A stretch of DNA of 63,216 nucleotides, filler included, from Phoronis australis (Eukaryota > Animalia > Phoronida): assembly GCA_002633005.1 (NCBI GenBank). It is 12 parts of 12 records of this genome, joined end to end, with 100 filler letters (N's around TTAATTAATTAA, not from the genome) between each part and the next. Parts side by side here need not be neighbours in the genome. Positions count along the whole stretch, not along the records: positions 24,723 to 27,414 come from NMRA01003491.1; positions 27,515 to 36,060 come from NMRA01001882.1; 10 more parts are not named here. One strand, given 5' to 3'. Under the pieces are notes generated by a model. The model was not told the origin of the DNA. It made no database searches and saw nothing but the letters and a program-made list of their open reading frames with translations. Positions 1,061 through 39,385 of the stretch are shown here, piece after piece. Each line of letters begins with the position of its first letter. Position 1 is the stretch's first letter. A program made the position numbers and the translations under genes.

Positions 1061-1466
1061 TTTAATAGTTGGGGTTTAAACACAACGTCACTCCGTTTAC
1101 TTCCAGTGACGTGGAAGTGGTCAATTTCATATTTACAGAGTTTGTGTGTCCAGGCGTGTCACTGTAACAGCCTGGATCGCGAGATGGTGGTTACCTAAGT
1201 ACCAGAAAACACCTCGGCTCGGCAGCAAATCGCATTTGCAATATCTGATTAAGTACACGTCATATCTTTAAATAGCTAAAAGTCCCTGCATCAATATTGG
1301 GAGGTCATCAGTAACTTGAACCCGCTGCACTGATCTAAGTTATAGTCTGTTTGCTCTAGATATACATGCCGTCCGTAGTTTCTTTGCGTAGTGTGTTCGT
1401 GTGTGTGTGACGAAATTGAAATCGCGTAGTCTCTTGGTTCGAGTAATATCAGCCGCAGATCTTGAT

Positions 1467-2472
1467 ATGGCTTGTCAAGTCTTGAATTTGTTGCTGACAA
1501 GCCTTGCAATTTCTGCATTGCACGTTGGAGGGGCTTCGGTGTCATTGGCGAGGTATGGATCAATCAAAGGCATCTTCGATTCCATTGAGGGAGTGACCCG
1601 TTTTCTCGGCGTGCCCTATGCCCAGGCACCGGTTGGTGAGCACAGGTTTTCCGCCCCGGCAGAGTTAAAACCATGGATTGGCGAACTAAAGTGTACGAGT
1701 TACAAACCTGCATGCCCTCAAGTTGTGGGTTTATTTTCTCCCACGTCTAACTTTCCGTCCTCGTTCAGTGAAGATTGCTTGTATTTGAACATATTTATTC
1801 CCAATCAAGTTGACCCAAAGAAGTCTTTGCCCGTCTTGGTACATTTTCATGACGGTATGTTTCAAGTTGGCTCGGCAGAGGGCGTGGATGGGACGAAACT
1901 GGCAGCGAGAGACAATGTGATTGTGATCACATTTAACTACAGGTTAGGTGTTATGGGCTTCTTGGGGAGAGATAACTATGGACTATGGGATCAGAATATG
2001 GCTCTCAGATGGGTTCAAGATAATGTGGGTCATTTTGGTGGGTCACCTGAGCAGGTTACTTTGGCGGGATCAGGATCCGCGGCATTCGCTGTTGGACTGC
2101 ACACTCTCGCCGATGTGAGTAATTCATTATTCAGAAGGGCTATTATGCTCGGAGGTTCTCCGTACCAAAATGATTACATTGTGTCTATCTTACGAGCCAA
2201 GAATGCTACAAAATTGTTCTATGAAAAAGTCAGTTGCAAAGTTGGCGACATACATTGTCTTCGAAAATTGCCCGTTGAGAAAATCGTTGAGACACAAAAA
2301 CAAATCTCGGGCTCTGAAGTCTTGTTTACCGTGAGAGAAGACGGGCAGTTTGTCCCAAGACCATCACGTGACCACTTAAACAGAGACGATTCCGAGAGGA
2401 CGGTCTCCGAATGCATACTTGGACTTAATGTCAACAATGGCGGCATTGAACTAGTGACTGACTCCATTCCTA
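1467..2472 (+). CDS. Secreted type-B carboxylesterase/cholinesterase-fold protein, non-catalytic neuroligin-like; truncated by contig end
   Basis: ATG at 1467 followed by a signal-peptide-like segment. Family motifs FLGVPYAQAPVGEHRF, SEDCLYLNIF, NYRLGVMGFL, NYGLWDQNMALRWVQDN. Nucleophile elbow reads GSGSA rather than GESAG. Confidence 0.92.
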
Positions 2473-9103: not shown

Positions 9104-9476
9104 ACAGGCGGCTAGTAGAAATCCAAACAGACTTAATAAAAACATCCTACATTTATGTGGCCAGCTGTGGGCTATGGTTGTAAAAAGCGGATTCAAAATT
9201 AAATTGAACATAAAATGTTCCCAGATAAATTTAACATTTGCCAAAAAGTTCTTAATTTGCCTGATATCCTTTAATTTTCTTAATGTGAAAAACTGGTTGG
9301 CTAGCTTAATAAGTGGCTACCAAAATTATTTACCAAGATGACCTTAGGTCTGGACGAACGGGAACAACACTATGCAAAAGAGTTTGGTAAGTTCCTAGAC
9401 AGAAAGATAAAAATTTTCAACATAGTAAATTCGGAAACAATTTATTCATCTGTTTTGTTATATATTTTTCAGGTTC

Positions 9477-10880
9477 ATGGAAGATTCTTCCATGGTCAAC
9501 CTGTCTCAGGGGAGTGGCAAAACTGGATCATCCACTATGGTTTTAGCTGATGAGAGTGGTGAGGCATGCAGTCTTGTGTCTACTCAATCTGGTCATGCAG
9601 ACTGTGCTGATTCACAAGTGAGATGTGATGTCAAAGAATATAATTCTGGCACACTGGTGACCCTTGGAAACAAAGCGTGTAACATAAGTATGTCAAACGA
9701 GATGCCATTGGTGCTAAAGATGGAAGTTGAAGATGATGGATACAATGTTTGTGCACTGGATCATGACAGTACAATACCAAATACCTGGGATAAAGCAATC
9801 TCTGAGATTTCGTGTGAAAATAGGATGGTGCAAAAAACTTATAATGATGGGGATGATTCAGAGACCAGTTTACACGAAACTAGTTTGAATGATGACTTTG
9901 TAGCGGATCGTAACTTTCCAACTGGCAGTGATTGGGAGGGACGTAAAAAGTGTTCTGTTTCCATATTTCATCATAAGGACACTCAAGATGACCCAGATTT
10001 TGTGCAAAGTGAATCGGATGACTTGGAATATGAAGATGATGTCAGTGGAGATCCCGACTTCACGAATTTTAAAAAACAAAAGGTGAAGAAGAAACAAAAC
10101 CATCCAAAAGAACCGAAAGTTAAAACTCCTAAGACTAAAAAGTCAAAGAAGGAAAAGCCTTATAAAGAAAAGACCATTAGCAAAGGCTTTTACATGTTGG
10201 ATGATGGTTGTCACACTATTGTGAGTGTAAAATTCCAGCCATACTTGGAAGTAGTTCGAGAGGATGTTGATACCAGTGCTCCTAGTGGTCATTCTTCATC
10301 AGTGGAACCTTGTGAGAATGGAGCAGTGGGTGTTGTTGGTGGACAATCTGAACGTTGTAAAGCGGATGCATCATGTCCTAAGCCACCGGTTTCGTTGGTT
10401 AAGTACCGCTGCAAAGTTTGCGGATACTCGTCGAAATCTTTGAGTGTAACTCGCTGGCATATTTCAAGGGTGGAGTTGCAGGAGCCATCTATGTGTTCCG
10501 AGTGTGGGGACGTGTTACCCAATAACCACCAGCTCTACGTTCACAAGAAGCAAGAACATGAGAACCGTAAGGTGGTCAAGAAGATATACCCGTGCTCTTA
10601 TGAGGGCTGTAGTTTCACTGCCAAAAACAAGCTGCAGACTAAGAAACACATGGATTCGGTGCACGAGAACAGGCGTGACCACCCATGTACGTGGGAAGGA
10701 TGCGAAAAGTGTTTCAAGGACCCGTATGCATTGCGAGTTCATATGAGGATCCACAATGATGACAAGCCCATTATTTGTTACTTATGCGGTTTTCGATGCC
10801 GTCAAAAATCATCACTCAATTGGCACATGAAAACAAAACACCCAACAGACAATGATGGGCGGACAAGAGAGAATGTCTGA
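9477..10880 (+). CDS. C2H2 zinc-finger protein, ZFP91/ZNF653/ZNF692-family-like last finger
   Basis: 467-aa ORF after acceptor tttttcag (9472). Acidic and Lys-rich regions, then C2H2 fingers ending CGFRCRQKSSLNWHMK. An upstream coding exon is possible. Confidence 0.88.
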   Translation: MEDSSMVNLSQGSGKTGSSTMVLADESGEACSLVSTQSGHADCADSQVRCDVKEYNSGTLVTLGNKACNISMSNEMPLVLKMEVEDDGYNVCALDHDSTIPNTWDKAISEISCENRMVQKTYNDGDDSETSLHETSLNDDFVADRNFPTGSDWEGRKKCSVSIFHHKDTQDDPDFVQSESDDLEYEDDVSGDPDFTNFKKQKVKKKQNHPKEPKVKTPKTKKSKKEKPYKEKTISKGFYMLDDGCHTIVSVKFQPYLEVVREDVDTSAPSGHSSSVEPCENGAVGVVGGQSERCKADASCPKPPVSLVKYRCKVCGYSSKSLSVTRWHISRVELQEPSMCSECGDVLPNNHQLYVHKKQEHENRKVVKKIYPCSYEGCSFTAKNKLQTKKHMDSVHENRRDHPCTWEGCEKCFKDPYALRVHMRIHNDDKPIICYLCGFRCRQKSSLNWHMKTKHPTDNDGRTRENV

Positions 10881-13473: not shown

Positions 13474-13628
13474 CTAGGGTTAGGGTTAATCGTGAGGTTA
13501 GGTTTAGGGTTAAGGCTAAGGTTAGGTTAGGGTTTGACGGGTTTTTCAAGGGTTTAGGGTTAGGGTTAGGGTTAGGGTTGGGATGGGGTAAGGGTTAGGG
13601 TTAAGGTTTTTCATGGGTTTAGAGTTAG
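13474..13628 (+). repeat. Interstitial telomere-like (TTAGGG)n tract
   Basis: Perfect TTAGGG run at ~13554-13577 within degenerate variants. Confidence 0.85.
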
Positions 13629-16807: not shown

Positions 16808-17193
16808 TTAACTAAAATGATTTCGTACGACTTGCTGCCGAACTTGTCGACCATCCTCCAGCTCTTGAGGGACCCTCACGTCCTCTTCTTCCTCTTCATC
16901 ATTGCCTTCCGCCCACGACTCACATATGTCCCCCCTCTCGATTCCTACGTTATGAAGTATTGCGCACGTAACTACAGCTTGACATGCCTTTTGAGGGCTC
17001 ACTCGTAAACCACTATGTAAGCAAGCAAACCGTCTTTTCAAAATTCCAAATGTCTGCTCTATGCAAACTCTTGCTCTGCACAGCGCTGTGTTGAACGCTT
17101 CTTCGGCATTGTCGGCAGTGTTCAGAAAGGGCGTCATCAGGAATGGTCGACACGGGTATCCTGAATCCCCTACCAAATAACCTCTATGCTCCC
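16808..17193 (-). mobile_element. PIF/Harbinger (HARBI1-like) DDE transposase, last exon
   Basis: Acceptor tgcag, then YLVGDSGYPCRPFLMTP...FNTALCRARVCIEQTFGILKRRF...CAILHN; intact to the stop. Confidence 0.92.
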
Positions 17194-17959
17194 CTGCATT
17201 AAACAGAAAACGAAAGAGTCTGTGAATGGAATATCAAGAAGCACGAACGAAATGGTCCCTAAGTAATGCTTGTAGCGGGGGGCACGGTTCTGGACGTACT
17301 ACTCGTCTAGTACTTAAGGTCCCTCTTGGCAAGCATTTGGCGACCGCCTGCAAGCGGGACTCACACCCATGGGAATGTGCTGTAACCTGTTTAACAAACA
17401 NNNNNNNNNNNNNNNNNNNNNNNNNNNNNNNNNNNNNNNNNNNNTTAATTAATTAANNNNNNNNNNNNNNNNNNNNNNNNNNNNNNNNNNNNNNNNNNNN
17501 ACTGTGTAGGCTACCAGGACATGCAGCTGTTTTCTGCACAAACGTTTGTGACACCTCTTCTTCTTTTTGATCTACTGATCTACAGAGTTCCACAGTCAAT
17601 CAGCTTTCGTCAGGAAGCTTTCCTAAACTTCTTTAGGCTCTGACATCACAATTTTGTGCTGTTTGATAAACCTTGAATTATACAGGCATCACATTCCATG
17701 GGAGCAGCCATATTGAAGTAACTAAGCACAACAATACAATCTGGCTCTCTGATTGGTCAATTCACTAGAAAAGCGCCATCATGTGGCAGGAATGTGCATC
17801 ATATTTTGTGCAACAAAAACACCTTTTTTTAGAAAAATGTGCAAGTGTAGACGTGGGAACTTTTTGGAATTTGATTTATAGGTATATTATCTAGCCACAT
17901 AGAAAAAACTAGGTTGCCCCCCCAAAGTACTCACAAGGATGAACGCTATGAGATCTGGC

Positions 17960-18710
17960 CCACCGACTAATAGCTCGTTTACAAAATCAGAACTATCGAA
18001 GTTACGGTACGAGCGGGTAGTTATTACCCGAGCTGGATTTTTCGGATGTATAGATTTGTAACTTGTGTATATCATGCTGTGATCACTGAGACCGGTACTG
18101 ACCACTCTACGAAAGTATACCTTGTTAACATTAGACACAAGAATTAAATATAAGCAAGTTGATGTTTTGTCAGTTACTCTGGTTGGCATGTCTGTTACAT
18201 TTTGTAAACCAAGCGTGCGCTCCCAAAATTTAATCTTAGTACTAGATTTTTGGAGAATGCATTTAGTTAATATCACCAGCAATAACAAAGTCACTGGCTT
18301 TGCAATTTTGATTACCTAAAATCTTTTTAAAATGATATGTTAGCTTTTTCAGGTGATCCGCATTGGACGATGGTGGTCTATAAACCGCAACGATGACCAG
18401 GCTCTTTGATTTAGGGATCTTGATTTCCAGCCATAGTGATTCAATTTGATCATCCTGGTGATCTAATATGCGAGTTGCTATTGAGAATCTGGAGTATATA
18501 GCAACACCACCACCATTTCTGTTTCTGTCACGTCTTAGACGATTAAAGCCGTCTATATTAACTTCAGAATCCTCTATCATTGATGAGAGCCGAGTTTTAT
18601 TTAAACACATGATATCGGTAGTGTTCTGGCTCATAATCAGTCTCAGATCGTCAACCACATCTAGGAGGGAAACGATGTTTAAATGAGCAATACGAAGACC
18701 CTTAGTGAAC
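17960..18710 (-). mobile_element. CR1/L2-type LINE AP-endonuclease fragment, disabled
   Basis: RRDRNRNGGGVAIY, VYRPP, GDIN, PTRVT, LSDHSMI. In-frame stop or frameshift near 18263. Conserved E replaced (NKTRL). Confidence 0.9.
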
Positions 18711-19402
18711 TTTAATGAAGACAGTTCGGAATCGCATAGTTCTCTTTCTGAAATGTCAATTGATGCACTGGTAGAATCTTTTTGTCGTCACTGTGAGGTA
18801 CATATTCTCGTGGTTTTAGAATAAGCAGTCATCAAAGTCAAAAATACTTGACAATGCACTTTCACGTTGGTATACGACTGCTGTTGTATCATCATGTAGA
18901 GCCCCATGGTTTTCAGTCATTGCTTAATCTGGAGTTTTTATTATGCCATTGTTTAGGCTTTCAGCCAAGTTGTGCATTATATGGGTAGATGACTGTACAG
19001 AGGTGAGGCTGCATTGAATAGACTCACATTGATTGTCCCGCCAAGTGACGTCACAGCCCGATTTCAGTGGATTTTCTTGAGCCGACAAAAAGGTGGTCAA
19101 AATCAAGAGCGTGAGATGATGGGTCGTATCAAATGTTACCATAGTTTTCTAAGAGTCATATGCACGTAGATACAAAAATCGGTGTAATAAAGCTCGTTTT
19201 GGCGATTTACATGTTGACGTTTTGATTTGGAAAGCATGGACGGCAATATCCAAACAAGCTGGCGATCACATCGTTAATCATAGTCCTTCCGCCAGCAGCC
19301 TCTGCAGACGACAGCGGCACAGCGGGAATGCGACCCACTTGTTTTCCAACCGTGAACAGAACACACAAAATGAAATATTATTGAATAAAAAATAATCCTT
19401 AC

Positions 19403-24044: not shown

Positions 24045-24596
24045 AGGTACACGTCAAAAAGTAATTCAACAGTAATTCACAATGCTGATAATGTAACGTC
24101 TGAGGTTACTAGTACCTTCCAACACGTAAAGAAGCAAACTAGGAGTTGTAATAACTGCTCAACAACAAAGGAAAAAACACAGATAGACTGGGAGTTGACC
24201 GTCTACCTCCCAACGCTAAGGAAAGAAATAACTATGCATGAGTTGTGGCACAGCTTGTGGACGTCGTTGGACATCGAGGACTTTAGTTGCCCACACTGTA
24301 ATAGTCTCAGTGGCCAGCTCACATGGTCATTAGTAAAACCGCCAAAATACCTTTGTATTCATATCTTACGAACCACGACTAATGGTGAAAAAATCAATAC
24401 AAAGATTTCCTCGTATGACCTCTCCGGCTACAAAATAAAAGCAGTCATTGAACACCATGGAAGAAACACGACGGGTGGTCATTACACATGCTGTGTTAAA
24501 TCGTCAGCATGGGAATGGATAAATTTTGACGACTCTACAGTCACAAGTACATCCAAGCCTCCCCTGGATGCCTACATTGCAATATATGAATTATAA
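24045..24596 (+). CDS. Compact ubiquitin-specific protease (C19) C-terminal half; Cys box not seen
   Basis: Open frame with CNNC...CPHC zinc ribbon, PPKYLCIHILR, His box HHGRNTTGGHYT, WINFDDS, AYIAIYE*. Confidence 0.75.
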   Translation, partial: RYTSKSNSTVIHNADNVTSEVTSTFQHVKKQTRSCNNCSTTKEKTQIDWELTVYLPTLRKEITMHELWHSLWTSLDIEDFSCPHCNSLSGQLTWSLVKPPKYLCIHILRTTTNGEKINTKISSYDLSGYKIKAVIEHHGRNTTGGHYTCCVKSSAWEWINFDDSTVTSTSKPPLDAYIAIYEL

Positions 24597-27165: not shown

Positions 27166-27894
27166 TCTTATTATGGCCAAAAAGTGATGTAATTAACATA
27201 ACATATGCCGTGACACATCAGCTTCTAGAGCTCGGTCTGCTGCAAGTTCTTTCGAAGTGCTGAAGTGGCCTCTAAGTCCACTGCAGAACAATTTAAAACC
27301 AATTTCATAATCGTTTTTTTGTGAAAATCAAAAGTTATTTTTTATAATAGAAGGCGAACTTGCAGCCGTTTTTAATATGTAAACCACAATTACACGTAGT
27401 TCCCAGTTAAACCTNNNNNNNNNNNNNNNNNNNNNNNNNNNNNNNNNNNNNNNNNNNNTTAATTAATTAANNNNNNNNNNNNNNNNNNNNNNNNNNNNNN
27501 NNNNNNNNNNNNNNTTCTCTGAAAGGAGATGTTGGTAGGGACATGCCGTCAATTCAGGTTAGTATTTTTGTCTCTTCGATATAATCTACAGGATTATTTT
27601 GCTTATTAAGTAGATATTTTGCCATCCTGATTGAGTATTTTGGCTTGTGGTATCAGCTAAGATGGCAGGCAAAAGAAAAAAGTTTATGGAAGTGCTTTAT
27701 TGTCTGGGATAGGGTTTAAGGTCCTTTAATACCCTACGGCAATCATTTCTCAATTGCATAGGTGCTGCAAGGTTCATGATTTGAGAAATGACAGCATCTC
27801 CCTATCCGTTAAGCGGAAGGGTATTCTTGTTGAGGGTCACTTTGGGATGACATCAGACAGTGAGTGAATTAGTGACACACTACAAGGAGCTTGC

Positions 27895-27942
27895 CTTCTG
27901 TAGTTGTAGTTGTAGTACTATTATTATCAACTACTGGAAAAC
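27895..27942 (-). CDS. Microexon, 48 nt, (G)FPVVDNNSTTTTTTE
   Basis: ttctttccag acceptor, AAG|gcaagc donor, phase 1-1. Confidence 0.75.
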
Positions 27943-28653
27943 CTGGAAAGAACCAGTCACCAAATTACCCTAGAACAGTGCAAAGTTTATCAAGTCATGA
28001 ATTGTGCTGTCAGTTGTTAAGTCACATTGTCAACCCCTGATGGCACTTTACAATCAATGGAAGCGACACATTCCTCAAAAATGCAACAAAAGAGTACAAA
28101 AATGTCACAACATAGGACTGCGGTAATTAGATTATACAATACAATACAATCAAAATTAACCAACCTGCATTGTGGAGTTTAATAAAATATAAATGTGATT
28201 CAAACACATATCTAAATACCTGAGAGCCAGAATTAAAGAAGTAGATTCAGGATTTGAGTGAGGATTATTCAGTGCCTGGGGGGAGTGGGGGGGTTTCTCT
28301 GAAAGGTGATGTTGGTAGGGACATGCCGTCAATTCAGGTGGGTATTTTTATGTCTCCCGATATAATTTCTAGCGATATGTTGCTCAAGTAGATATTTTGC
28401 GGCTTGGTGGTATCCGCTAAGATGACAGGCAAAAGAAAAGAAGGTTGACAGAAGTACTTTTGTTCGGGATAGTTTTACATCCATTCATAGCCTTTGATAA
28501 TCATTTTCTCAATGACCTAGGTACTGCACTAATCATGATTTGAAATATGACGGCATCTCCCTATCCGTTAAGCGGAAGAGTATTCATGATGAGGGTCACT
28601 TTGGTATGACATCAGACAGTGCATGAATTAGTGACACACTACAAGGAGCTTGC

Positions 28654-28707
28654 CTTCTGTAGTTGTAGTTGTAGTTGTAGTACTATTATTATCAACTACT
28701 GGAAAAC
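28654..28707 (-). CDS. Microexon, 54 nt, (G)FPVVDNNSTTTTTTTTE
   Basis: tttctttccag acceptor, AAG|gcaagc donor, phase 1-1. Confidence 0.75.
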
Positions 28708-29457
28708 CTGGAAAGAAACATTCATCAAATTACTCGAGAACAGTGAAGACAGTGCAAAGCTTATCAAGTCGTAAATTCTGCTGTTAGTGTTAAGTCATAC
28801 TGTCAACCCCTAATGGCACTTTATAATGAGAGGAACTAACACATTCCTCAAAAATGCATCAAATGTGTGCAAAACTATCACAACATATGATTATGGTAAT
28901 TAGATTATACAATACAATACAATTCAATACAATCAAAATTAACCACCTGTTGAGCTAATTTGTATTGTGGAGTTTAATAAAATATAAAGGTAACTCAAAC
29001 ATATATCTAAATACTTAAGAGCCACAATTAAACAAGAAGGTTCAGGATTTGGGTGAGGATTATTCAGTGCTTTGGGAGGGGTGAGGGTGTTCTGAAAGAT
29101 GTTGGTAGGGACATGCCGTCAATTCAGTTGAGTATCTCTCTGACATAATCTCCAGGGCTTTTTGCTCATGTAGATATTATGCCATCCTGTGTGTGTATTT
29201 TGGCTTTGTGGTATCAGCTCAGATGGCAGGCAAAACAAAAGAAGATTCATGGAAGTGCTTTATTGCCCGAGATAGGGTTTGAGATCCTTTAATAGCCTAC
29301 GGTAATTATTTCTCAGTTGCCTAGGTACTGCACTGATCACGATTTGAAATATGATGGCATCTCCCAATCCCTGAAGCGGAAGGGTATTCGTGATGAGGGC
29401 CACTTTGGTATGACATCAGACGGTGCATGAATTAGTGACACACTACAAGGAGCTTGC

Positions 29458-29511
29458 CTTCTGTAGTTGTAGTTGTAGTTGTAGTACTATTATTATCAAC
29501 TGAAGGAAAAC
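29458..29511 (-). CDS. Microexon, 54 nt, (G)FPSVDNNSTTTTTTTTE
   Basis: tcctttccag acceptor, AAG|gcaagc donor. Confidence 0.75.
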
Positions 29512-30224
29512 CTGGAAAGGACCAGTCACCAAATTACCCTTCAACAGTGAAGACAGCGCAAAATTTATCAAGTTATAAATTGTGCTGTAGTCAAGAGATA
29601 TTGTCAACCCCTGATGGCACTTTGCAATCAGAGGAAGCGATACATTCCTCAAAAATGCACTAAAAAGTACAAAAATATCACAGCATATGACTATGGTAAT
29701 TAGATTATACAATACAAACAAAATTAACCAGCCTGTTCAGCTAATTTGCATAGTGGAGTTTAATAAAATGTAAACGTGATTCAAACACATACCAGAGCCA
29801 GACTTAAAGAAGAAGATTCAGAAGCTGGGTGAGGATTATTCAGTGCCTGGGGGGAGGGGGGGGGTTTCTCTGAAAGGTGATGTTGGTAGGGACATGCCGT
29901 CAATTCAGGTGGGTATTTTTATGTCTCCCGATATAATTTCTAGCGATATGTTGCTCAAGTAGATATTTTGCGGCTTGGTGGTATCCGCTAAGATGACAGG
30001 CAAAAGAAAAGAAGGTTGACAGAAGTACTTTTGTTCGGGATAGTTTTACATCCATTGATAGCCTTTGATAATCATTTTCTCAATGACCTAGGTACTGCAC
30101 TAATCATGATTTGAAATATGACGGCATCTCCCTATCCGTTAAGCGGAAGAGTATTCATGATGAGGGTCACTTTGGTATGACATCAGACAGTGCATGAATT
30201 AGTGACACACTACAAGGAGCTTGC

Positions 30225-30278
30225 CTTCTGTAGTTGTAGTTGTAGTTGTAGTACTATTATTATCAACTACTGGAAAAC
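30225..30278 (-). CDS. Microexon, 54 nt, (G)FPVVDNNSTTTTTTTTE
   Basis: Same splice signals, phase 1-1. Confidence 0.72.
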
Positions 30279-30851
30279 CTGGAAAGAAACATTCATCAAA
30301 TTACTCGAGAACAGTGAAGACAGTGCAAAGCTTATCAAGTCGTAAATTCTGCTGTTAGTGTTAAGTCATACTGTCAACCCCTAATGGCACTTTATAATGA
30401 GAGGAACTAACACATTCCTCAAAAATGCATCAAATGTGTGCAAAACTATCACAACATATGATTATGGTAATTAGATTATACAATACAATACAATTCAATA
30501 CAATCAAAATTAACCACCTGTTGAGCTAATTTGTATTGTGGAGTTTAATAAAATATAAAGGTAACTCAAACATATATCTAAATACTTAAGNTAATTGCTT
30601 TGGCTTTGTGGTATCAGCTAAGATGGCAGGCAAAAGAAAAGAAGGTTTATGAAAGTGCTTTATTGTCAGGGATAGGGTTTTAGATGCTTTAACAGCCTTC
30701 GGTAATCGTTTCTAGATAGCCTAGTTATGATCACCGTTTGAAAAATGACGACATCTCCCTATCTTGTAAGTGGAAGAGAATTTATGATGAGGGTCACTTT
30801 GGGATGACATCAGACAGTGAGTGAATTAGTTACACACTACAAGGAGCTTGC

Positions 30852-30899
30852 CTTCTGTAGTTGTAGTTGTAGTACTATTATTATCAACTATTGGAAAAC
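30852..30899 (-). CDS. Microexon, 48 nt, (G)FPIVDNNSTTTTTTE
   Basis: Same splice signals; conservative V-to-I change. Confidence 0.75.
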
Positions 30900-31645
30900 C
30901 TGGAAAGAACCAGTCACCAAATTACCCTAGAACAGTGAAGACAGTACAAAGTTTATCAAGTTATAAATTGTGCTGTTGTCAAGTCATAATTTCAACCACT
31001 GATGGCACTTTACAATCAGAGGAAGCAATACATTCCTCAAACATGCATCAATAGAGTACAAAAATGTCACAACATATAATTATGGCAATTAGATTATACA
31101 GTACGATACAATCAAAATTAATCAGCCTGGTGAGCTAATTTGCATTGTGGAGTTTAATAAAATATAAATTTGATTCAAACACATAATCTAAATACCCGAG
31201 AGCCAGAATGAAATAAGTAGATTCAGGATATGGGTGAGGATTATTCAGTGCCTGGGGGAGGGGAGTTCTCTGAAAGGTGATGTTGATAGGGACATGCCGT
31301 CAATTCAGGTTGGTATTTTTATCTCTCTTGATATAATTCCTGGCGATATGTTGCTCAAGTAGATATTTTGTCATCCTGAGTGTGTATTTTAGCTTGGTGT
31401 TATCAGCTAAGACGGTAGGCAGAAGAAAATGAGGTTGGCAGAAGTACTGTTGTTCGGGATAAAGTTTTACATCCATTAATAGCCTTTGATAATCATTTTC
31501 TCAATGGCCTAGGTACTGCACTAATCATGATTTGAAATATGACGGCATCTCCCTATCTGTTAAGCGGAAGAGTATTCATGATGAGGGTCACTTTGGTATG
31601 ACATCAGACAGTGCATGAATTAGTGACACACTACAAGGAGCTTGC

Positions 31646-31699
31646 CTTCTGTAGTTGTAGTTGTAGTTGTAGTACTATTATTATCAACTACTGGAAAAC
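31646..31699 (-). CDS. Microexon, 54 nt, (G)FPVVDNNSTTTTTTTTE
   Basis: Same splice signals, phase 1-1. Confidence 0.72.
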
Positions 31700-32452
31700 C
31701 TGGAAAGAAACATTCATCAAATTACTCGAGAACAGTGAAGACAGTGCAAAGCTTATCAAGTCGTAAATTCTGCTGTTAGTGTTAAGTCATACTGTCAACC
31801 CCTAATGGCACTTTATAATGAGAGGAACTAACACATTCCTCAAAAATGCATCAAATGTGTGCAAAACTATCACAACATATGATTATGGTAATTAGATTAT
31901 ACAATACAATACAATTCAATACAATCAAAATTAACCACCTGTTGAGCTAATTTGTATTGTGGAGTTTAATAAAATATAAAGGTAACTCAAACATATATCT
32001 AAATACTTAAGAGCCACAATTAAACAAGAAGGTTCAGGATTTGGGTGAGGATTATTCAGTGCTTTGGGAGGGGTGAGGGTGTTCTGAAAGGAGATGTTGG
32101 TAGGGACATGCCGTCAATTCAGTTGAGTATCTCTCTGACATAATCTCCAGGGCTTTTTGCTCATGTAGATATTATGCCATCCTGTGTGTGTATTTTGGCT
32201 TTGTGGTATCAGCTCAGATGGCAGGCAAAACAAAAGAGGATTCATGGAAGTACTTTATTGCCTGAGATAGGGTTTGAGATCCTTTAATAACCTACGGTAA
32301 TTATTTCTCAGTTGCCTAGGTACTGCACTGATCACGATTTGAAATATGATGGCATCTCCCAATCCCTGAAGCGGAAGGGTATTCATGATGAGGGTAACTT
32401 TGGGATGTCATCAGACAGTGAGTGAATTAGTGACACACTACAAGGAGCTTGC

Positions 32453-32500
32453 CTTCTGTAGTTGTAGTTGTAGTACTATTATTATCAACTGAAGGAAAAC
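32453..32500 (-). CDS. Microexon, 48 nt, (G)FPSVDNNSTTTTTTE
   Basis: Same splice signals, phase 1-1. Confidence 0.75.
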
Positions 32501-33247
32501 CTGGAAAGGACCAGTCACCAAATTACCCTTGAACAGTGAAGACAGTGCAAAGTTAATCAAGTCATAAACGGAGTTGTTGCAAATCCTATTTTCAACCCCT
32601 GATGGCACTTTACAATCAGAGGAAGGGACACATTCCTCAAAAATTCACCAAAAGAGTACACAAATATCACAACATATGACTATGGTAAATTAGATTATAC
32701 AATACAATCAAAATTAACCAGCCTATTGATCTAATTTGCATTGTGGAGTTTAATGAAACATAAACGTGATTCAAACACATTTCTAAATACTTGAGAGCCA
32801 GAATTAAACAAGTAGATTCAGGATTTGGGTGAGGATTATTAAGTGCCTGGGGGGAGGGGGGCTGGGGTTCTCTGAAAGGTGATGTTGGTAGGGACATGCC
32901 GTTAATTCAGGTTGGTATTTTTGTCTCTTCGATATAATCTATAGGATTATTTTGCTCAAGTAGATATTTTGCCATCCTGAGTGTGTACTTTGGCTTTGTG
33001 GTATCAGCTCAGATGGCAAGCAAAAGAAAAGAAGGTTCATGGAAGTGCTTTATTGTCTGGGATAGGGTTTTAGATCCTTTATTAGCCTACGGCAATTATT
33101 TTTCAATTGCCTAGGTACTGCACTGTTCACAATTTGAAATATGACGGCATCTCCTTATCCGTTAAGCGGAAGGGTATTCATGATGAGGGTCACTTTGGAA
33201 TGACATCAGACGGTGAGTGAATTAGTGACACACTACAAGGAGCTTGC

Positions 33248-33301
33248 CTTCTGTAGTTGTAGTTGCAGTTGTAGTACTATTATTATCAACTACTGGAAAA
33301 C
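33248..33301 (-). CDS. Microexon, 54 nt, FPVVDNNSTTTATTTTE
   Basis: Same splice signals, phase 1-1. Confidence 0.75.
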
Positions 33302-33639
33302 CTGGAAAGAACCAGTCACCAAATTACCCTTCAACAGTGAAGACAGCGCAAAGTTTATCAAGTTATAAATTGTGCTGTAGTCAAGAGACATTGTCAACCC
33401 CTGATGGCACTTTACAATCAGAGGAAGCGATACATTCCTCAAAAATGCACTAAAAAGTAAAAAAATATCACAGCATATGACTATGGTAATTAGATTATAC
33501 AATACAAACAAAATTAACCAGCCTGTTCAGCTAATTTGCATAGTGGAGTTTAATAAAATGTAAACGTGATTCAAACACATACCAGAGCCAGACTTAAAGA
33601 AGTAGATTCAGAAGCTGGGTGAGGATTATTCAGTGCCTN

Positions 33640-33709
33640 TCTGGTTCTTACAGTTTTCTTCATCCAACTTGCACTTGTTGGCGTAAGTCATACCATCAGT
33701 TCCACACAC
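33640..33709 (-). CDS. Kazal-domain exon of agrin-like follistatin-repeat protein (cut by N at 33639)
   Basis: ttttgtag acceptor; VCGTDGMTYANKCKLDEENCKNQ; phase 0, matching the preceding exon. Confidence 0.9.
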
Positions 33710-34549
33710 CTACAAAATAACTCATCACTGAATTATAGGCACTGTTACTGCAAAAAAAAACTCCAAAAGTAAGTCTGTCACCTGCCATCAGGCTCGTTGG
33801 GCCAACTGGTAACTAGTTTTGTAGCGAGGAGGGATGTGACACTTTTAACTCCACCTGAACGGCAAGCTGGTACATTACAGTTATGTCCAAGAGATGGACA
33901 GTTCTTACTCCTATAGCAAAGTCAACTGGAGTAACCCAGGTTAACAGCACAGCATTACCCAAGACACAGACTTAGAGAATACGATTGATGCTCGTTAATC
34001 AGAAGAGGAAACTGGTTCTCAACACACAGGACCCTGTCAGTGACCGCTACCCTTGACAACTACATGTATCAGCCACGGCCAACCACTGTGCTGAATAGCC
34101 ACTGTCAAACCCTCAAAAACAAGATCAATCGCTATTTTTGAACACATGCAAGAACTCATACAGAGGAGTTGTTGTACAGTTTTAGAGTGTTTAAGCTAGT
34201 AGGTGATGTCTACACAAAGAGGATAAGAGTATACGAAGACACATCACTAGATTACAATGCGTTGTAGACCTATGAATGATCATATATGATTTTTAGAGTA
34301 CATGAGTTAGGTTAGTCACATAGTTTTACTATTTGGTTTGTGCAATGTAAGCATATAATACCATGAGCACAGACGCATCCTAGCTACGTGACGGTCACAT
34401 TAACCATGATCAATGGCTTCCAGGACAATCGAATTCAAAGAGTACATATAATGAAATATGTACCTAGCTAATGAAACTTAAAACGTAACAGTTATGTTAA
34501 CAAGCACGATGACCAAAGCTCAACACCCAAAAAGTAACTATATACTTAC

Positions 34550-34659
34550 AGGCTTGTGTTCTTCTGAGCATTTAGGACACTCACAGATGGGCTTGTTGTT
34601 CCTTACTTTACACTCGGCTCCATAAGCACATTTAAAATCTACACAGAGACCACCATCAG
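34550..34659 (-). CDS. Follistatin-N/Kazal exon, agrin-like
   Basis: ttgcag acceptor and gtaagt donor; DGGLCVDFKCAYGAECKVRNNKPICECPKCSEEHKP; phase 1-0. Confidence 0.9.
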
Positions 34660-35259
34660 CTGCAATAAAGGAATAACATGGCAATAAACAGACACTAAGC
34701 TGAAATAACTGACAGCTAATTTGATATTTACAAAAGTAAAACAAAACCGTTACAAGGAACTCTAATACAATGTCTGGGATGTTTAACACAAACATAAGAA
34801 ACAGCAGACTGTCACAAATCTAATCACATGAGTTCGGTTTGCGTACGATTTAAAAATTGTGACTGATTACTACTGTAATGATATGCATAATACCACATAA
34901 CAGTACCCACTTCAAGTTGATGTGTATTATAGCTCACAACTGACTACAAGTTGGCAGGCTGGTATACAGCTGAAAAGTGGGTGCATATTGACGTGTATCA
35001 TAGTTAGAAACAGAATGTTCATTGACGAGTATTATAGCTAAGAACAAACAGACTATGATTTGGATAGTATTATAGTTGACTATTACAGCTAAAACTAGTT
35101 TTAATTTGATGTCCATCACAGTAAAACCCTGAGGCAAGTTGAACTGATTGCAATGGGGAGATGTATCATTGGCAAGAACTAGATGGAAGTTGATCTACTG
35201 GTAACTGGTTGGAAGTTGGCATGACAACTCATCCATGAGTATTGCAGCAGAGAACTCAC

Positions 35260-35472
35260 CACAAGTTCCAACAAATTTGATAGTAAGATCTTTGTTCGCT
35301 TTACAAGACTTCTTCATCAGATCACAACTATTCTCATATGTGACACCATCTGATCCACACACAGGCCGGTAGTAGCGCGACTCACAGGTTGGACATTCAC
35401 ACTGTGCAGGTCGTCCACTATTAATCATGCACTCAGCATAACGTCTACACTCCAAGTTGCCACAACCTTCAC
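35260..35472 (-). CDS. Complete follistatin domain exon, agrin-like
   Basis: ttacag acceptor and gtgagt donor, 213 nt, phase 1-1; CGNLECRRYAEC...CECPTC...PVCGSDGVTYENSCDLMKKSC...GTC. Confidence 0.93.
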
Positions 35473-36160
35473 CTGTAATAAAAAGACCAAACAAACGGTA
35501 AAATTGTGAAGTAACTTAACACACAATTAGATGCCAGCACAAACCACCTCCAGCAATAGTTGAATAAAGAAATTATGACAGTGATTTTGATGCATTGGTT
35601 TAAAAATTTGATAGAAACAAAGATGAGTATAATTAAGTATGAACACGTTCAAGATGCTCAAGTGTTTGCCTTTTTCCTATTCCAAAGTGTTGTTCAACCC
35701 CTTTTACTTAATATTTGCCTGGTGTCGAATCTGAAGATGACTTGAATCAAATTTTGCATGGATATCAGTCATAATTACACTTGCTTTGCAACAAACCACC
35801 AATGATTTAATTACCATTAGTCATTAGGATACAATGTGAAAGTGAACAGTAATTCCTGAGGCAAGTTATTTGTCATCACTTCTTAACCAAGTAAACTTAA
35901 GAAAGAGCAAAAATAATTCCCAAAATTACCCTTTTTTGTTTGGCATGGTCTTCTGCATAGTTTTAAATGCCAATAATTTTTCAAAATATTCTCTGATGGT
36001 AGCTACGGTACAGAACATGAATAATATTCTCTGATGGTAGCTACGGTACAGAACATGAATNNNNNNNNNNNNNNNNNNNNNNNNNNNNNNNNNNNNNNNN
36101 NNNNTTAATTAATTAANNNNNNNNNNNNNNNNNNNNNNNNNNNNNNNNNNNNNNNNNNNN

Positions 36161-39100
36161 GGCACACCGTACTTCTCTTCATGGTCTGGGTCAAACTTGG
36201 GCAGACAACCTGCAATTATTTGGATTGAGCACAATGCGGAGTGTAGGTGACTATTGGCTATCTTGATTTTGCTACTGCACTAACCACTTTCAACAGCGAA
36301 AAAATTTTTATTTTGACTATTAACATAATGAAATTGGTCTCAAATTGTTTCTCAGTCAAAACAAGTGGTGTGATTTCCAATGGGATTGGAAAGAACTGCC
36401 AGACTTGTTATTGGTTGAGACCAAACTCTGCGCAATGACTGGTCATGGTGTGTCACTTCCTCCACCAAGCACAGCCTTAAGGAAATCATTTCTCATCTGA
36501 GTATGAACAAGTTGAGAGCAACTTCATGGCCGCAAGTGGGATAAATCAAAAGCTAATTCCTTTGAAAGAACATAAGTTTACATTTGCCTAAAGAGTTCTG
36601 TGTCTGCTTTAAACTAATGAAAGATCACGAACCTAAGGCAAAAATTTGCTTACACATCAACATCTAAAAAATTAAGAAATTTACAAGTTAGTAATTTTAT
36701 GGCAAAATTTCAAATTGCTCCTCGGTCCATACAGTGCACATTCATGATTACTCATACAAAAATGATTTGCCAAATCATTAAACTCATCAAAACATTCACC
36801 AAACTGATTTCATCAACCATCCTCATTATATAACACTGCTGCTTTTGAGGAAGTCATTGAACACAGTAATACAAACCCATGAAGTCTTCACTTGAAGGGA
36901 TTCTTGCAGGTTTTGGAGGGGGCCCAATCTGAGACAAGACAGTCTGGAACCGTTGATAAGTCAGTGGAGGGTTGCCTGAGTTCTTGGCAATTATCCTGGA
37001 AGATGTGGAACAACAACTTAGACTGGAAAACCACCACCTGACAATGTTTGACTTTGAGCCGCAGTGATTAGTGCACAGCTCCAGTATCTAATCTCTATAC
37101 TTGAACTTGAACTGATAAAAATAAAAGAGGTCGGGCCCACATGCTGCAAATAATTCAGTGTCCACTGTATTTAAAGTCTTGGCTGAATAAACTGATCAGG
37201 CTTCAATAACTTGGCTTGACATGATCAAATAGTGTTGATGATGTAATGTTGATGATGTAGTGTTGATGATGTAGTGTTGATCATGCAATGTTGATCATGT
37301 AGTGTTGGCCATGTAGTGTTGACCATGAAGTGTTGATCATGTAGTGTCGATCATGTAGTGTCGATCATGTAGTGTCGATCCTGTAGTGTTAATCACATAG
37401 TGTTAATTATCATGTAGCGTTGATCATGTAGTGTCGATCATGTAGTGTCAATCATGTAGTGTTGATCATGTAGTATTGATCATGTATTGTTGATCATGAG
37501 CTGAACCAATACCGTAAAGTTTCTTCAAATAAGAACGCAATATGGCAGAATGGTAAAATTAAATTTCGTCAAAATTTTCAATGAGAGTAAACAACAAGAC
37601 TTGATTGTTTGAAAACCATATTAAGTACTGGTGTCATCAACAAAAACGTGGTGACATTTTGAATACAATTCAAAAATTGAAAATATTACAATTTTGGCCA
37701 TCATTTTTGTTCGAATGTGAGGTAACTATACCGAACGTGTCAGTCCACAAATTGTTTTGTGAGATAGGAACAAGCTGAGACAAAAATTACAACAACAGTA
37801 AGTGATCAATGTCGAAACCTAAAGGTGCATCTCACTCCATTTAGCCGGCTAAAAAGTAAAAATTAAATTTGAAGTACACCAGCATTTTCATATTTGTAAT
37901 TTTAGTGTAAACCATATCGCAGTACGGAATATCATGATGCCAATTTCACAAGAGTATAAGGCATACTTCAATTTTTGCTTTTTAGCCAGCATTATATCTT
38001 TTTGACAGTAGGTTGCTTTTAAGTGTTTATCTCGGTACTAAACGCAGAACTGAACACTTATACCTGATTAACTGGTTTCCACGGTGCCCGATTTAAGAAC
38101 ACTGTCATGCACATTCACAATCCTCACTGTACAAATGGAATGGACGACATAGGCAGTATCAGTAAAGAAACACCATCTCTTTACTATTTGACTAGGTTGA
38201 AAACAGAAAACCCTTCATCAGCACAGGGTCGTTTGCGCAACTCCCGTGTGACAACTTGAATGCAAGGACTGGACTGTAACTGTAAAGCGCCACCTAGTGA
38301 CTGCCATACCCCTGTTGACATGCTTACCGTTCAGGATTGTACAAGGTGTGTGATGTCTCTGTAACCACTTCAATGTTATGCTGCAGCGCCATCTGTGTGA
38401 CCAGACTGTCACGCTCCCTAGCGTACGGCTCTGTGTCCACCTCATAGCCCAGCCGAGTGACCCCCCAGTCTTTGAACACTCTGGGAAACACCTCTTGAGG
38501 ATCCCCTCGCAGCACATACAACCTGAAACAGTTTCATACAAGATGATAAATTGATTAACGGGACGAAATAATCTTCCATAGGGGGGAGAAGGGCCCAAGT
38601 GTGACAACAGCATAGGTCAGTATCGCAGGGCGTATGCCATGCAGTGGTTTAAACTCAGCAGTGTTTGATCAGCTTAGTGGAGAGAGGGTTCTGGACAGTG
38701 GGCAAAGAGAGAGAGAGAGAGTTCTTGGTTTGAGAAAGGTGTCATTGCTGAATGTCTTTTCTCCATGGCCATCTTTACTGACACAGACTGATGTAAGTTA
38801 AGTATGTCACATTCTTTTATTTTTGTCACAAGGTTTGCAAGATACCTTGTGAAGCGCTAATTAGTTTCAACTATTGCAGCAGAACCTTAGTAATTCGTTA
38901 GTGTATTATAATGCCTTTGAATGGAAATGGAGTTATTTTGTTAGTGGCTAACGCATATAATTGTACAGTCAACTGGACATACAAATCACAAACATTTTAA
39001 GTCAGGTCTGAACACCATCTGTTGGCCACATCCCATGACCTGCATGCCGGTTCAAGATGTACATATATTTCAACATACAAACGTTTTGTATATTTCAGTT

Positions 39101-39385
39101 GAACTACGCTTTCAACGGTTTTTGCCACCAGAGGTACTACAAGAGGTTGAAGTACCTAGAATTGAGTGCCTTCAATTTCATATCCAGAGCCTTGAGAGAC
39201 TGAAGAAGAAAGCGCCATCTGTTGAGTCCAACTTTGGCGTTCTTTACAAACCACGGATCCAAAATAAAGATGGGTCGAAATGTTTTCACATCATCTGTAC
39301 ACATCTTCAACAAAGCAGGATTGTCATGGAGACGTAAACCTTTTCTGAACCAGTAGATGGCACTGTGGGTCCTATCTTTTGCCAT
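36161..39385 (-). CDS. (6-4) photolyase (cryptochrome/photolyase family), N-terminal four coding exons: 39156-39385, 38328-38522, 36877-36995, 36161-36209
   Basis: [76 protein letters not shown] sites with consistent phases. PIFILD, EPY and GPP favour (6-4) photolyase over vertebrate-type CRY. Confidence 0.93.
37222..37499. repeat. 14-bp intronic minisatellite, ~20 copies
   Basis: Unit GATCATGTAGTGT(T/C). Confidence 0.93.

Follow-up and report, generated by a model that had tools for sequence, protein, structure and literature searches.

A tandem array of GC-AG mini-exons encoding Thr-rich repeats, likely between follistatin modules of an agrin-like gene in Phoronis australis

Is a satellite-like tandem array in the genome of the phoronid Phoronis australis (GenBank assembly GCA_002633005.1) a run of coding exons, and where in a protein would its product lie? 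A preliminary description, made from sequence alone, took the array for duplicated microexons building a mucin-like stalk on an agrin-like Kazal protein. The window, the whole stretch of 63,216 nucleotides that we analysed, consists of separate scaffolds joined via N44-TTAATTAATTAA-N44 linkers; the scaffold that carries both the array and the exons of a follistatin/Kazal protein spans positions 27515-36060, with single Ns at 30591 and 33639. The array is real and expressed, although its full-length inclusion is unproven. We favour, at a probability of about 0.6, the reading that its eight units are spliced via GC-AG introns into a follistatin-type module start, likely at the joint between modules FS5 and FS6 of an agrin-like gene, where they would supply a variable, likely glycosylated, Thr-rich linker.

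Mini-exons spliced to one another through GC-AG introns

Eight minus-strand units each carry a mini-exon of 48 or 54 nt, in phase 1-1 and free of stops, as had been proposed (Table 1). All eight copies have a TTCCAG acceptor and an AAG/GCAAGC donor (the slash marks the exon end), so that the introns are of the GC-AG class. Joined, the mini-exons amount to 414 nt or 138 amino acids, with 57 Thr, 10 Ser, 8 Pro and 16 sequons; Thr, Ser or Pro account for 75 of the 138 residues. The units had been put at about 790 bp; their number stands, but the mini-exons are spaced 621-804 bp apart, with no uniform 790. The motif was not found elsewhere in the window beyond the eight copies, a search of metagenome contigs with the mini-exon pattern gave 0 matches, and Tandem Repeats Finder, with a period limit of 500, missed the array. 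Microexons are usually limited to 27 or 51 nt; exons of 48-54 nt lie at or above these sizes.

The RNA data comprised three raw-read runs (X1-X3; 18-19% of each) and one contig set (X4), chosen by species label. Reads were aligned to two single-copy stretches, 32860-35980 and one around exon 6, with a threshold of 3 reads for joints and loose ends. Counts from the exon 1 and exon 6 references overlap and are not additive, and the read filter can drop reads, which makes depth soft evidence. On the exon 6 reference, head-to-tail joints of the 54-nt form (29510 to 29457) were present in 10 X1 reads and 6 X2 reads and those of the 48-nt form in 13 X1 reads, for a total of 29 joints in two of the three read runs; on the exon 1 reference, the 54-nt form had 8+3 reads and the 48-nt form 3 reads. 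These spliced reads, which the preliminary description had named as a check on its proposal, link the exons at the AG acceptor and the GC donor that the sequence predicts. The joint geometry agrees with the predicted sites, and of four allowed cuts only one, on inspection, gives GC..AG. A GT donor further downstream was rejected because the joints fix the cut at AAG/GC. Array reads and Kazal reads have identical orientation, in agreement with the earlier placement of the array on the strand of the Kazal exons.

Splicing also leads out of the array. In 13 X1 reads and 5 X2 reads a mini-exon is followed by GFPSVDNITAE and then by DGCEKL, a Cys-rich, follistatin-type start. Both motifs are absent from the window and hence lie beyond the assembled scaffold; the GFPSVDNITAE variant, which retains a sequon (N-I-T), is probably a separate 33-nt exon. 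The mini-exon preceding this terminal variant was of the 48-nt type in 10 X1 reads, and X2 had only 54-nt joints. Either skipping or an allelic difference could account for this contrast between runs; short reads cannot count repeats.

Some reads depart from the assembled copies. Four carry a synonymous variant without a match in the eight copies. The last exon base (29458) is altered in 6 reads from X2 and X3, a change that would weaken the GC donor and may come from a silent unassembled copy. At 33489, 7 of 8 X1 molecules start at one position within the unit, which is either an alignment edge at an inter-unit indel or an RNA end.

The exons are steadier than the unit around them, as claimed earlier: pairs of copies diverge on average by 3.2% within the exons but by 11.0% and 12.1% in the flanks, and variable columns number 3 of 48 against 153 of 524 (Fisher p=2.8e-4; 5 distinct units, with units 5, 6 and 7 excluded as near-duplicates and the remainder still non-independent). 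All alignment gaps within the exons are of 6 nt (15/15), compared with 23 of 248 flank gaps that are multiples of 3. That exon length changes only by 6 nt is therefore borne out, but it is a weak sign of coding: the Thr run is encoded by a hexamer microsatellite, in which 6-nt steps can arise without selection, and we rejected such steps as proof of selection.

Probable placement of the array in a follistatin-repeat gene

The same scaffold carries three Kazal/follistatin exons, A, B and C (Table 1), joined by GT-AG splicing in 7+17+1 reads (A-B) and 18+10+2 reads (B-C; X1+X2+X3). Exon C runs past the N in 9+8+5 = 22 reads and one contig, translating KMIHVSYQGA, and upstream of exon A a read loose end gives the end of another module (...VLHKGPCDG). 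Exon A holds 10 Cys; B and C together hold 9, and the tenth would lie just beyond the read-derived ...SYQGA. Tandem 10-Cys follistatin (FOLN+Kazal) modules are thus a feature of the gene, with adjoining modules in RNA on both sides.

To which agrin modules do these exons correspond? A single reference agrin served for mapping agrin modules by alignment, and hidden Markov models (HMMs) were trained on these modules, with the window sequence excluded. B+C scored 79.9 bits against the protostome FS5 HMM and 61.5 against the next best. Exon A was ambiguous in position (FS5 67.9, FS6 62.8, next 62.1 bits) and looks like an extra FS5/FS6-like module; its top sequence matches and top PDB match are agrins. 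HMMs anchored on the laminin-EGF pattern were noisy and uninformative for exon A, and we set them aside. A protein near-identical to exon A was not found (13 matches/27 longer candidates; none of similar length), and each of the 150 best among 4046 representatives was distant.

The linker between FS5 and FS6 measures 1-5 residues in 116 of the 118 mapped agrin-search matches (120 proteins given) and 15 and 26 in the other two. FS6 starts with xGC, as in DGCEKL, in 29 of 35 protostome agrins and in 29 of 118 matches overall. In an earlier set, an xGC start followed 18 of the 28 best B+C matches, compared with 30 of 306 modules overall. Three of these best B+C matches have linkers of 12-37 residues, which indicates that the FS5/FS6 joint tolerates inserts. 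A run of at least 5 Thr between Kazal cores occurred in one of 272 multi-Kazal proteins, which had no follistatin-type architecture in the part seen.

Independently of the assembly, an FS5-type B+C, a DGC start and a short linker elsewhere together support an order in which the array follows exon C and precedes the DGC module. The array is therefore likely, from these comparisons, to be an internal FS5/FS6 linker of an agrin-like gene. The gene could be either agrin itself or an agrin-like poly-follistatin gene of the kind found in red coral (PMC7853314). The agrin-like Kazal protein of the preliminary description is in this respect upheld, as a follistatin-repeat gene with an FS5-type module. 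Two of its other points found no support: a terminal stalk does not fit an array that is followed by another follistatin-type start, and the Ser/Thr-rich regions of agrin, to which the preliminary description had pointed, flank the SEA module (PMC1939731), away from the putative FS5/FS6 position.

The earlier caveat that the join between Kazal exons and array crosses a single N at 33639 was correct as to the N, which conceals real missing sequence. Beyond each N, and where the scaffold ends at 27515, the sequence falls mid-unit, so that neither array edge is assembled and eight is a minimum copy number; further copies probably lie inside the assembly gaps.

Other reads touch exon A. Over 35260-35366, 7+4 reads (X2, X3) share its 3' part and have a different 5' part (CPSCEAGAH...), and in 2 reads the variant exon A end is joined to exon B. 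They may represent a second A-like module, an allele or a paralogue outside the window. At 35910-35941, reads of the opposite orientation cover about 30 bp and have loose ends at either side; this stretch is probably a short repeat that another transcript also contains.

Inclusion of the array and alternative explanations

Several observations weigh against the favoured reading. Among the joints and loose ends listed, none enters a mini-exon from a unique exon, exon C included, although X1 and X2 each show 7-18 reads at the neighbouring joints. The direct Kazal-to-FPVVDNNST junction predicted earlier was likewise unseen: the extension of exon C is followed by at least ~180 nt without a mini-exon piece, and the X4 contig, which continues 214 nt beyond exon C, has none matching mini-exon 1. 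Few reads consist of mini-exons alone: the copy pooling all units received only 28, 37 and 5 reads, by rough arithmetic several-fold under expectation for eight included exons, and X3, with 5 reads on the mini-exon copy, has no mini-exon joint among those listed. In X2, depth over most of the flanks (11-20) equals exon depth, so most X2 array reads are unspliced. Since the single-copy reference pools all units, go-back joints cannot tell which copies joined, and the 138-residue product, whose length and open frame hold as first described, is absent from reads and contigs. Turning to sequence, exon A also begins with xGC, so the motif is not unique within the gene. Synonymous sites of the mini-exons are as invariant as coding sites and conservation extends over the first ~25-50 nt of the intron, a pattern for which splice signals or gene conversion would also account. 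Taken together, the RNA counts point to transcripts with few repeats, or to skipping or retention as common events.

The array could belong to the gene and yet be mostly skipped, with a short linker in the mature mRNA (exon C to the terminal variant or FS6) and with the spliced mini-exons coming mostly from RNA that is spliced slowly or in part, or is a dead end, after a near-neutral expansion of exon plus intron. The unseen entry junction and the X4 contig that leaves exon C with no mini-exon piece agree with such skipping, as does intronic RNA: sense-strand depth reaches ~10 in the array and ~20 beside exon 6, and is 0 in most Kazal-intron bins. DNA contamination as the source of these intronic reads was rejected, as all are of one strand orientation. 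Intron read-through would meet a stop after 9 codons, and six reads carry an altered last exon base, which would weaken the donor. We nevertheless hold predominant skipping to be unlikely, because reads from mini-exon through terminal variant to follistatin start (13 in X1, 5 in X2) match those at the Kazal joints (7-18 and 10-17) in order of magnitude. Given exit reads on this scale next to constitutive joints, transcripts with one repeat or more are not rare. In addition, 8/8 copies are free of stops and frameshifts, and the diverged terminal copy keeps its sequon.

A coding linker could also be real and wrongly placed, if the scaffold join at 33639 is in error or more modules intervene, with the array elsewhere in the gene or in a paralogous follistatin-repeat gene. 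The link spans an N of unknown size that no read bridges; the X2 and X3 reads with an A-like module imply that near-identical modules or paralogues exist; and octocorals possess several agrin-like genes, whose assembly is difficult (PMC7853314). We regard misplacement as improbable, given that array and Kazal exons share a strand and that the conserved succession of FS5 and FS6 is matched by the FS5-type module ahead of the gap and the DGC start behind the array. Far less credible still is a non-coding satellite with accidental splice sites. A hexamer microsatellite alone yields 6-nt steps and many array reads are unspliced, but the mini-exon joints largely refute this explanation: they are precise, at one site pair, and come with an in-frame exit into a Cys-rich module and with exon conservation.

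The favoured reading, an included linker of variable length, suggests a bolder version that we put forward tentatively and consider doubtful as a whole: a splice-tunable glycan ruler in agrin, in which a recently amplified GC-donor array would set the FS5/FS6 spacer, which keeps apart follistatin modules that bind growth factors, at 0 to >140 residues for each transcript and each allele. In the favoured reading itself, all mini-exons are in phase 1-1, so that any subset retains the frame, and length tuning by exon skipping is plausible. GC donors are weaker than usual donors; they would likely slow the array introns, giving transcripts with none to several repeats. Each included repeat is predicted to bring in a single site for an N-glycan and 6-8 potential sites for O-glycans, and the repeats would push apart two follistatin modules that lie 1-5 residues apart in other agrins.

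Table 1. Features of the array scaffold, with positions along the window
Feature	Coordinates	Strand	Evidence or remark
Tandem array of exon+intron units (663-809 bp each, 84-99.7% alike)	27515..33638	-	both ends unassembled
Mini-exon 1, 54 nt, GFPVVDNNSTTTATTTTE	33248..33301	-	exon scan; head-to-tail joints when serving as single reference copy
Mini-exon 2, 48 nt, GFPSVDNNST6E	32453..32500	-	exon scan
Mini-exon 3, 54 nt, GFPVVDNNST8E	31646..31699	-	exon scan
Mini-exon 4, 48 nt, GFPIVDNNST6E	30852..30899	-	exon scan
Mini-exon 5, 54 nt, GFPVVDNNST8E	30225..30278	-	exon scan
Mini-exon 6, 54 nt, GFPSVDNNST8E	29458..29511	-	exon scan; joints and loose ends when serving as reference
Mini-exon 7, 54 nt, GFPVVDNNST8E	28654..28707	-	exon scan
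Mini-exon 8, 48 nt, GFPVVDNNST6E; last assembled copy	27895..27942	-	exon scan
Exon A, 213 nt, whole follistatin/Kazal module, 10 Cys, phase 1-1	35260..35472	-	Pfam Kazal_2 E=3.5e-11; A-B joint 25 reads
Exon B, N-terminal half of agrin FS5-type module, phase 1-0	34550..34659	-	A-B 25 reads, B-C 30 reads
Exon C, Kazal half of FS5-type module, cut by assembly gap	33640..33709	-	Pfam Kazal_2 E=1.8e-08; reads extend past 33640
Single N	33639	.	masks real gap (rest of exon C, intron, probably further units); read loose ends at 33640 absent from window; post-N sequence starts mid-unit
Second single N, within array	30591	.	unit across N ~180 bp short, hence gap of unknown size

Origin of the array, known parallels and significance

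The units are mosaics of one another. Unit 6 is a recombinant of unit 1 (5' half) and unit 2 (3' half), the 5' half is identical among units 3, 5 and 7, and the switches between units coincide with the exon. These mosaics would fit the unequal crossover suggested in the preliminary description, with collapsed or allelic assembly as an alternative. A short symmetric linker exon, of which GFPSVDNITAE may be the terminal survivor, would have acquired a Thr microsatellite; unequal crossover, its exchanges focused on the exon, would then have copied exon and intron together.

A similar layout is that of SmPoMuc of Schistosoma mansoni, with tandem ~1 kb units of a 27-bp exon and flanking intron in up to 20 copies (PMC2576457). 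Shared with it are Ser/Thr/Pro-rich repeats, unequal crossover or conversion, and a repeat region that resists assembly; SmPoMuc differs in that it forms a multigene family of a parasite, bears its repeat at the N-terminus and has introns >93% alike (PMC2576457). The present array has units 84-99.7% alike, GC donors, N-sequons and a position between follistatin modules. One exon per mucin repeat is also found in the PTS domain of chicken Muc13, for which splicing control of length was proposed (PMC1552070), in Xenopus Otogl (PMC5789918), and in FIM-C.1, which is described as polymorphic through alternative splicing (PMC7177656). Traits of such domains recur here, namely a spliced exon per unit, Thr/Ser/Pro-rich symmetric repeats and inter-unit exchange (possibly an assembly artefact), but those three are mucins with an ancestral PTS domain, in contrast to a recent insert in a tight joint of a matrix protein.

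Agrin follistatin modules expand by tandem duplication (PMC2874008), and the gene resembles agrin in its 10-Cys modules and FS5-type B+C. It departs from agrin in the apparent extra module of exon A and in its putative joint, as none of the 118 mapped matches has more than 26 residues between FS5 and FS6. NtA, LE, EGF and LamG are absent from this scaffold, which ends at 27515 and 36060. In schistosome micro-exon genes (MEGs), micro-exons make up as much as 75% of small secreted proteins, and runs of short symmetric exons can be skipped in frame as here (PMC4015677); the mini-exons are instead near-identical recent copies embedded among the follistatin modules of a modular protein, which places the gene outside the MEG class. 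Cryptococcus CNN00420 likewise makes new introns by duplicating exon ends with an intron and varies in copy number among strains, but with a 107-nt fungal unit in few copies (PMC2395259). No Thr-rich mini-exon array inside an agrin was found in the literature, most subscription literature not being covered. One-exon-per-repeat Thr-rich domains are already known.

Other scaffolds of the window hold further features. A photolyase/cryptochrome exon (39158-39385, minus strand; Pfam DNA_photolyase E=1.9e-18) lies on the next scaffold, with a second exon of that gene, read by eye, at about 38330-38520 (minus strand). A long open reading frame at 1392-2470 (plus strand), truncated by a linker, presumably encodes a carboxylesterase/cholinesterase-family protein, and a 483-residue open frame at 9429-10880 (plus strand) ends in what we take to be C2H2 zinc-finger-like repeats. 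Further putative fragments resemble a Harbinger-type DDE nuclease (16808-17233, minus strand), a broken LINE endonuclease region (17887-18787, minus strand) and a ubiquitin-protease C-terminal box (24045-24596, plus strand). A degenerate TTAGGG-like repeat at 13475-13608 is internal to its scaffold.

The locus would represent a young, datable birth of a mucin-like segment in an old matrix protein, through one exon amplified with its intron. It also offers a direct test case for the Muc13 proposal, in which splicing would set spacer length within an individual. The N-terminal follistatin region of agrin binds BMP/TGF-beta ligands (PMC2874008), so a variable glycosylated insert could alter reach or ligand binding. 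More generally, arrays masked as satellites can conceal GC-AG coding exons.

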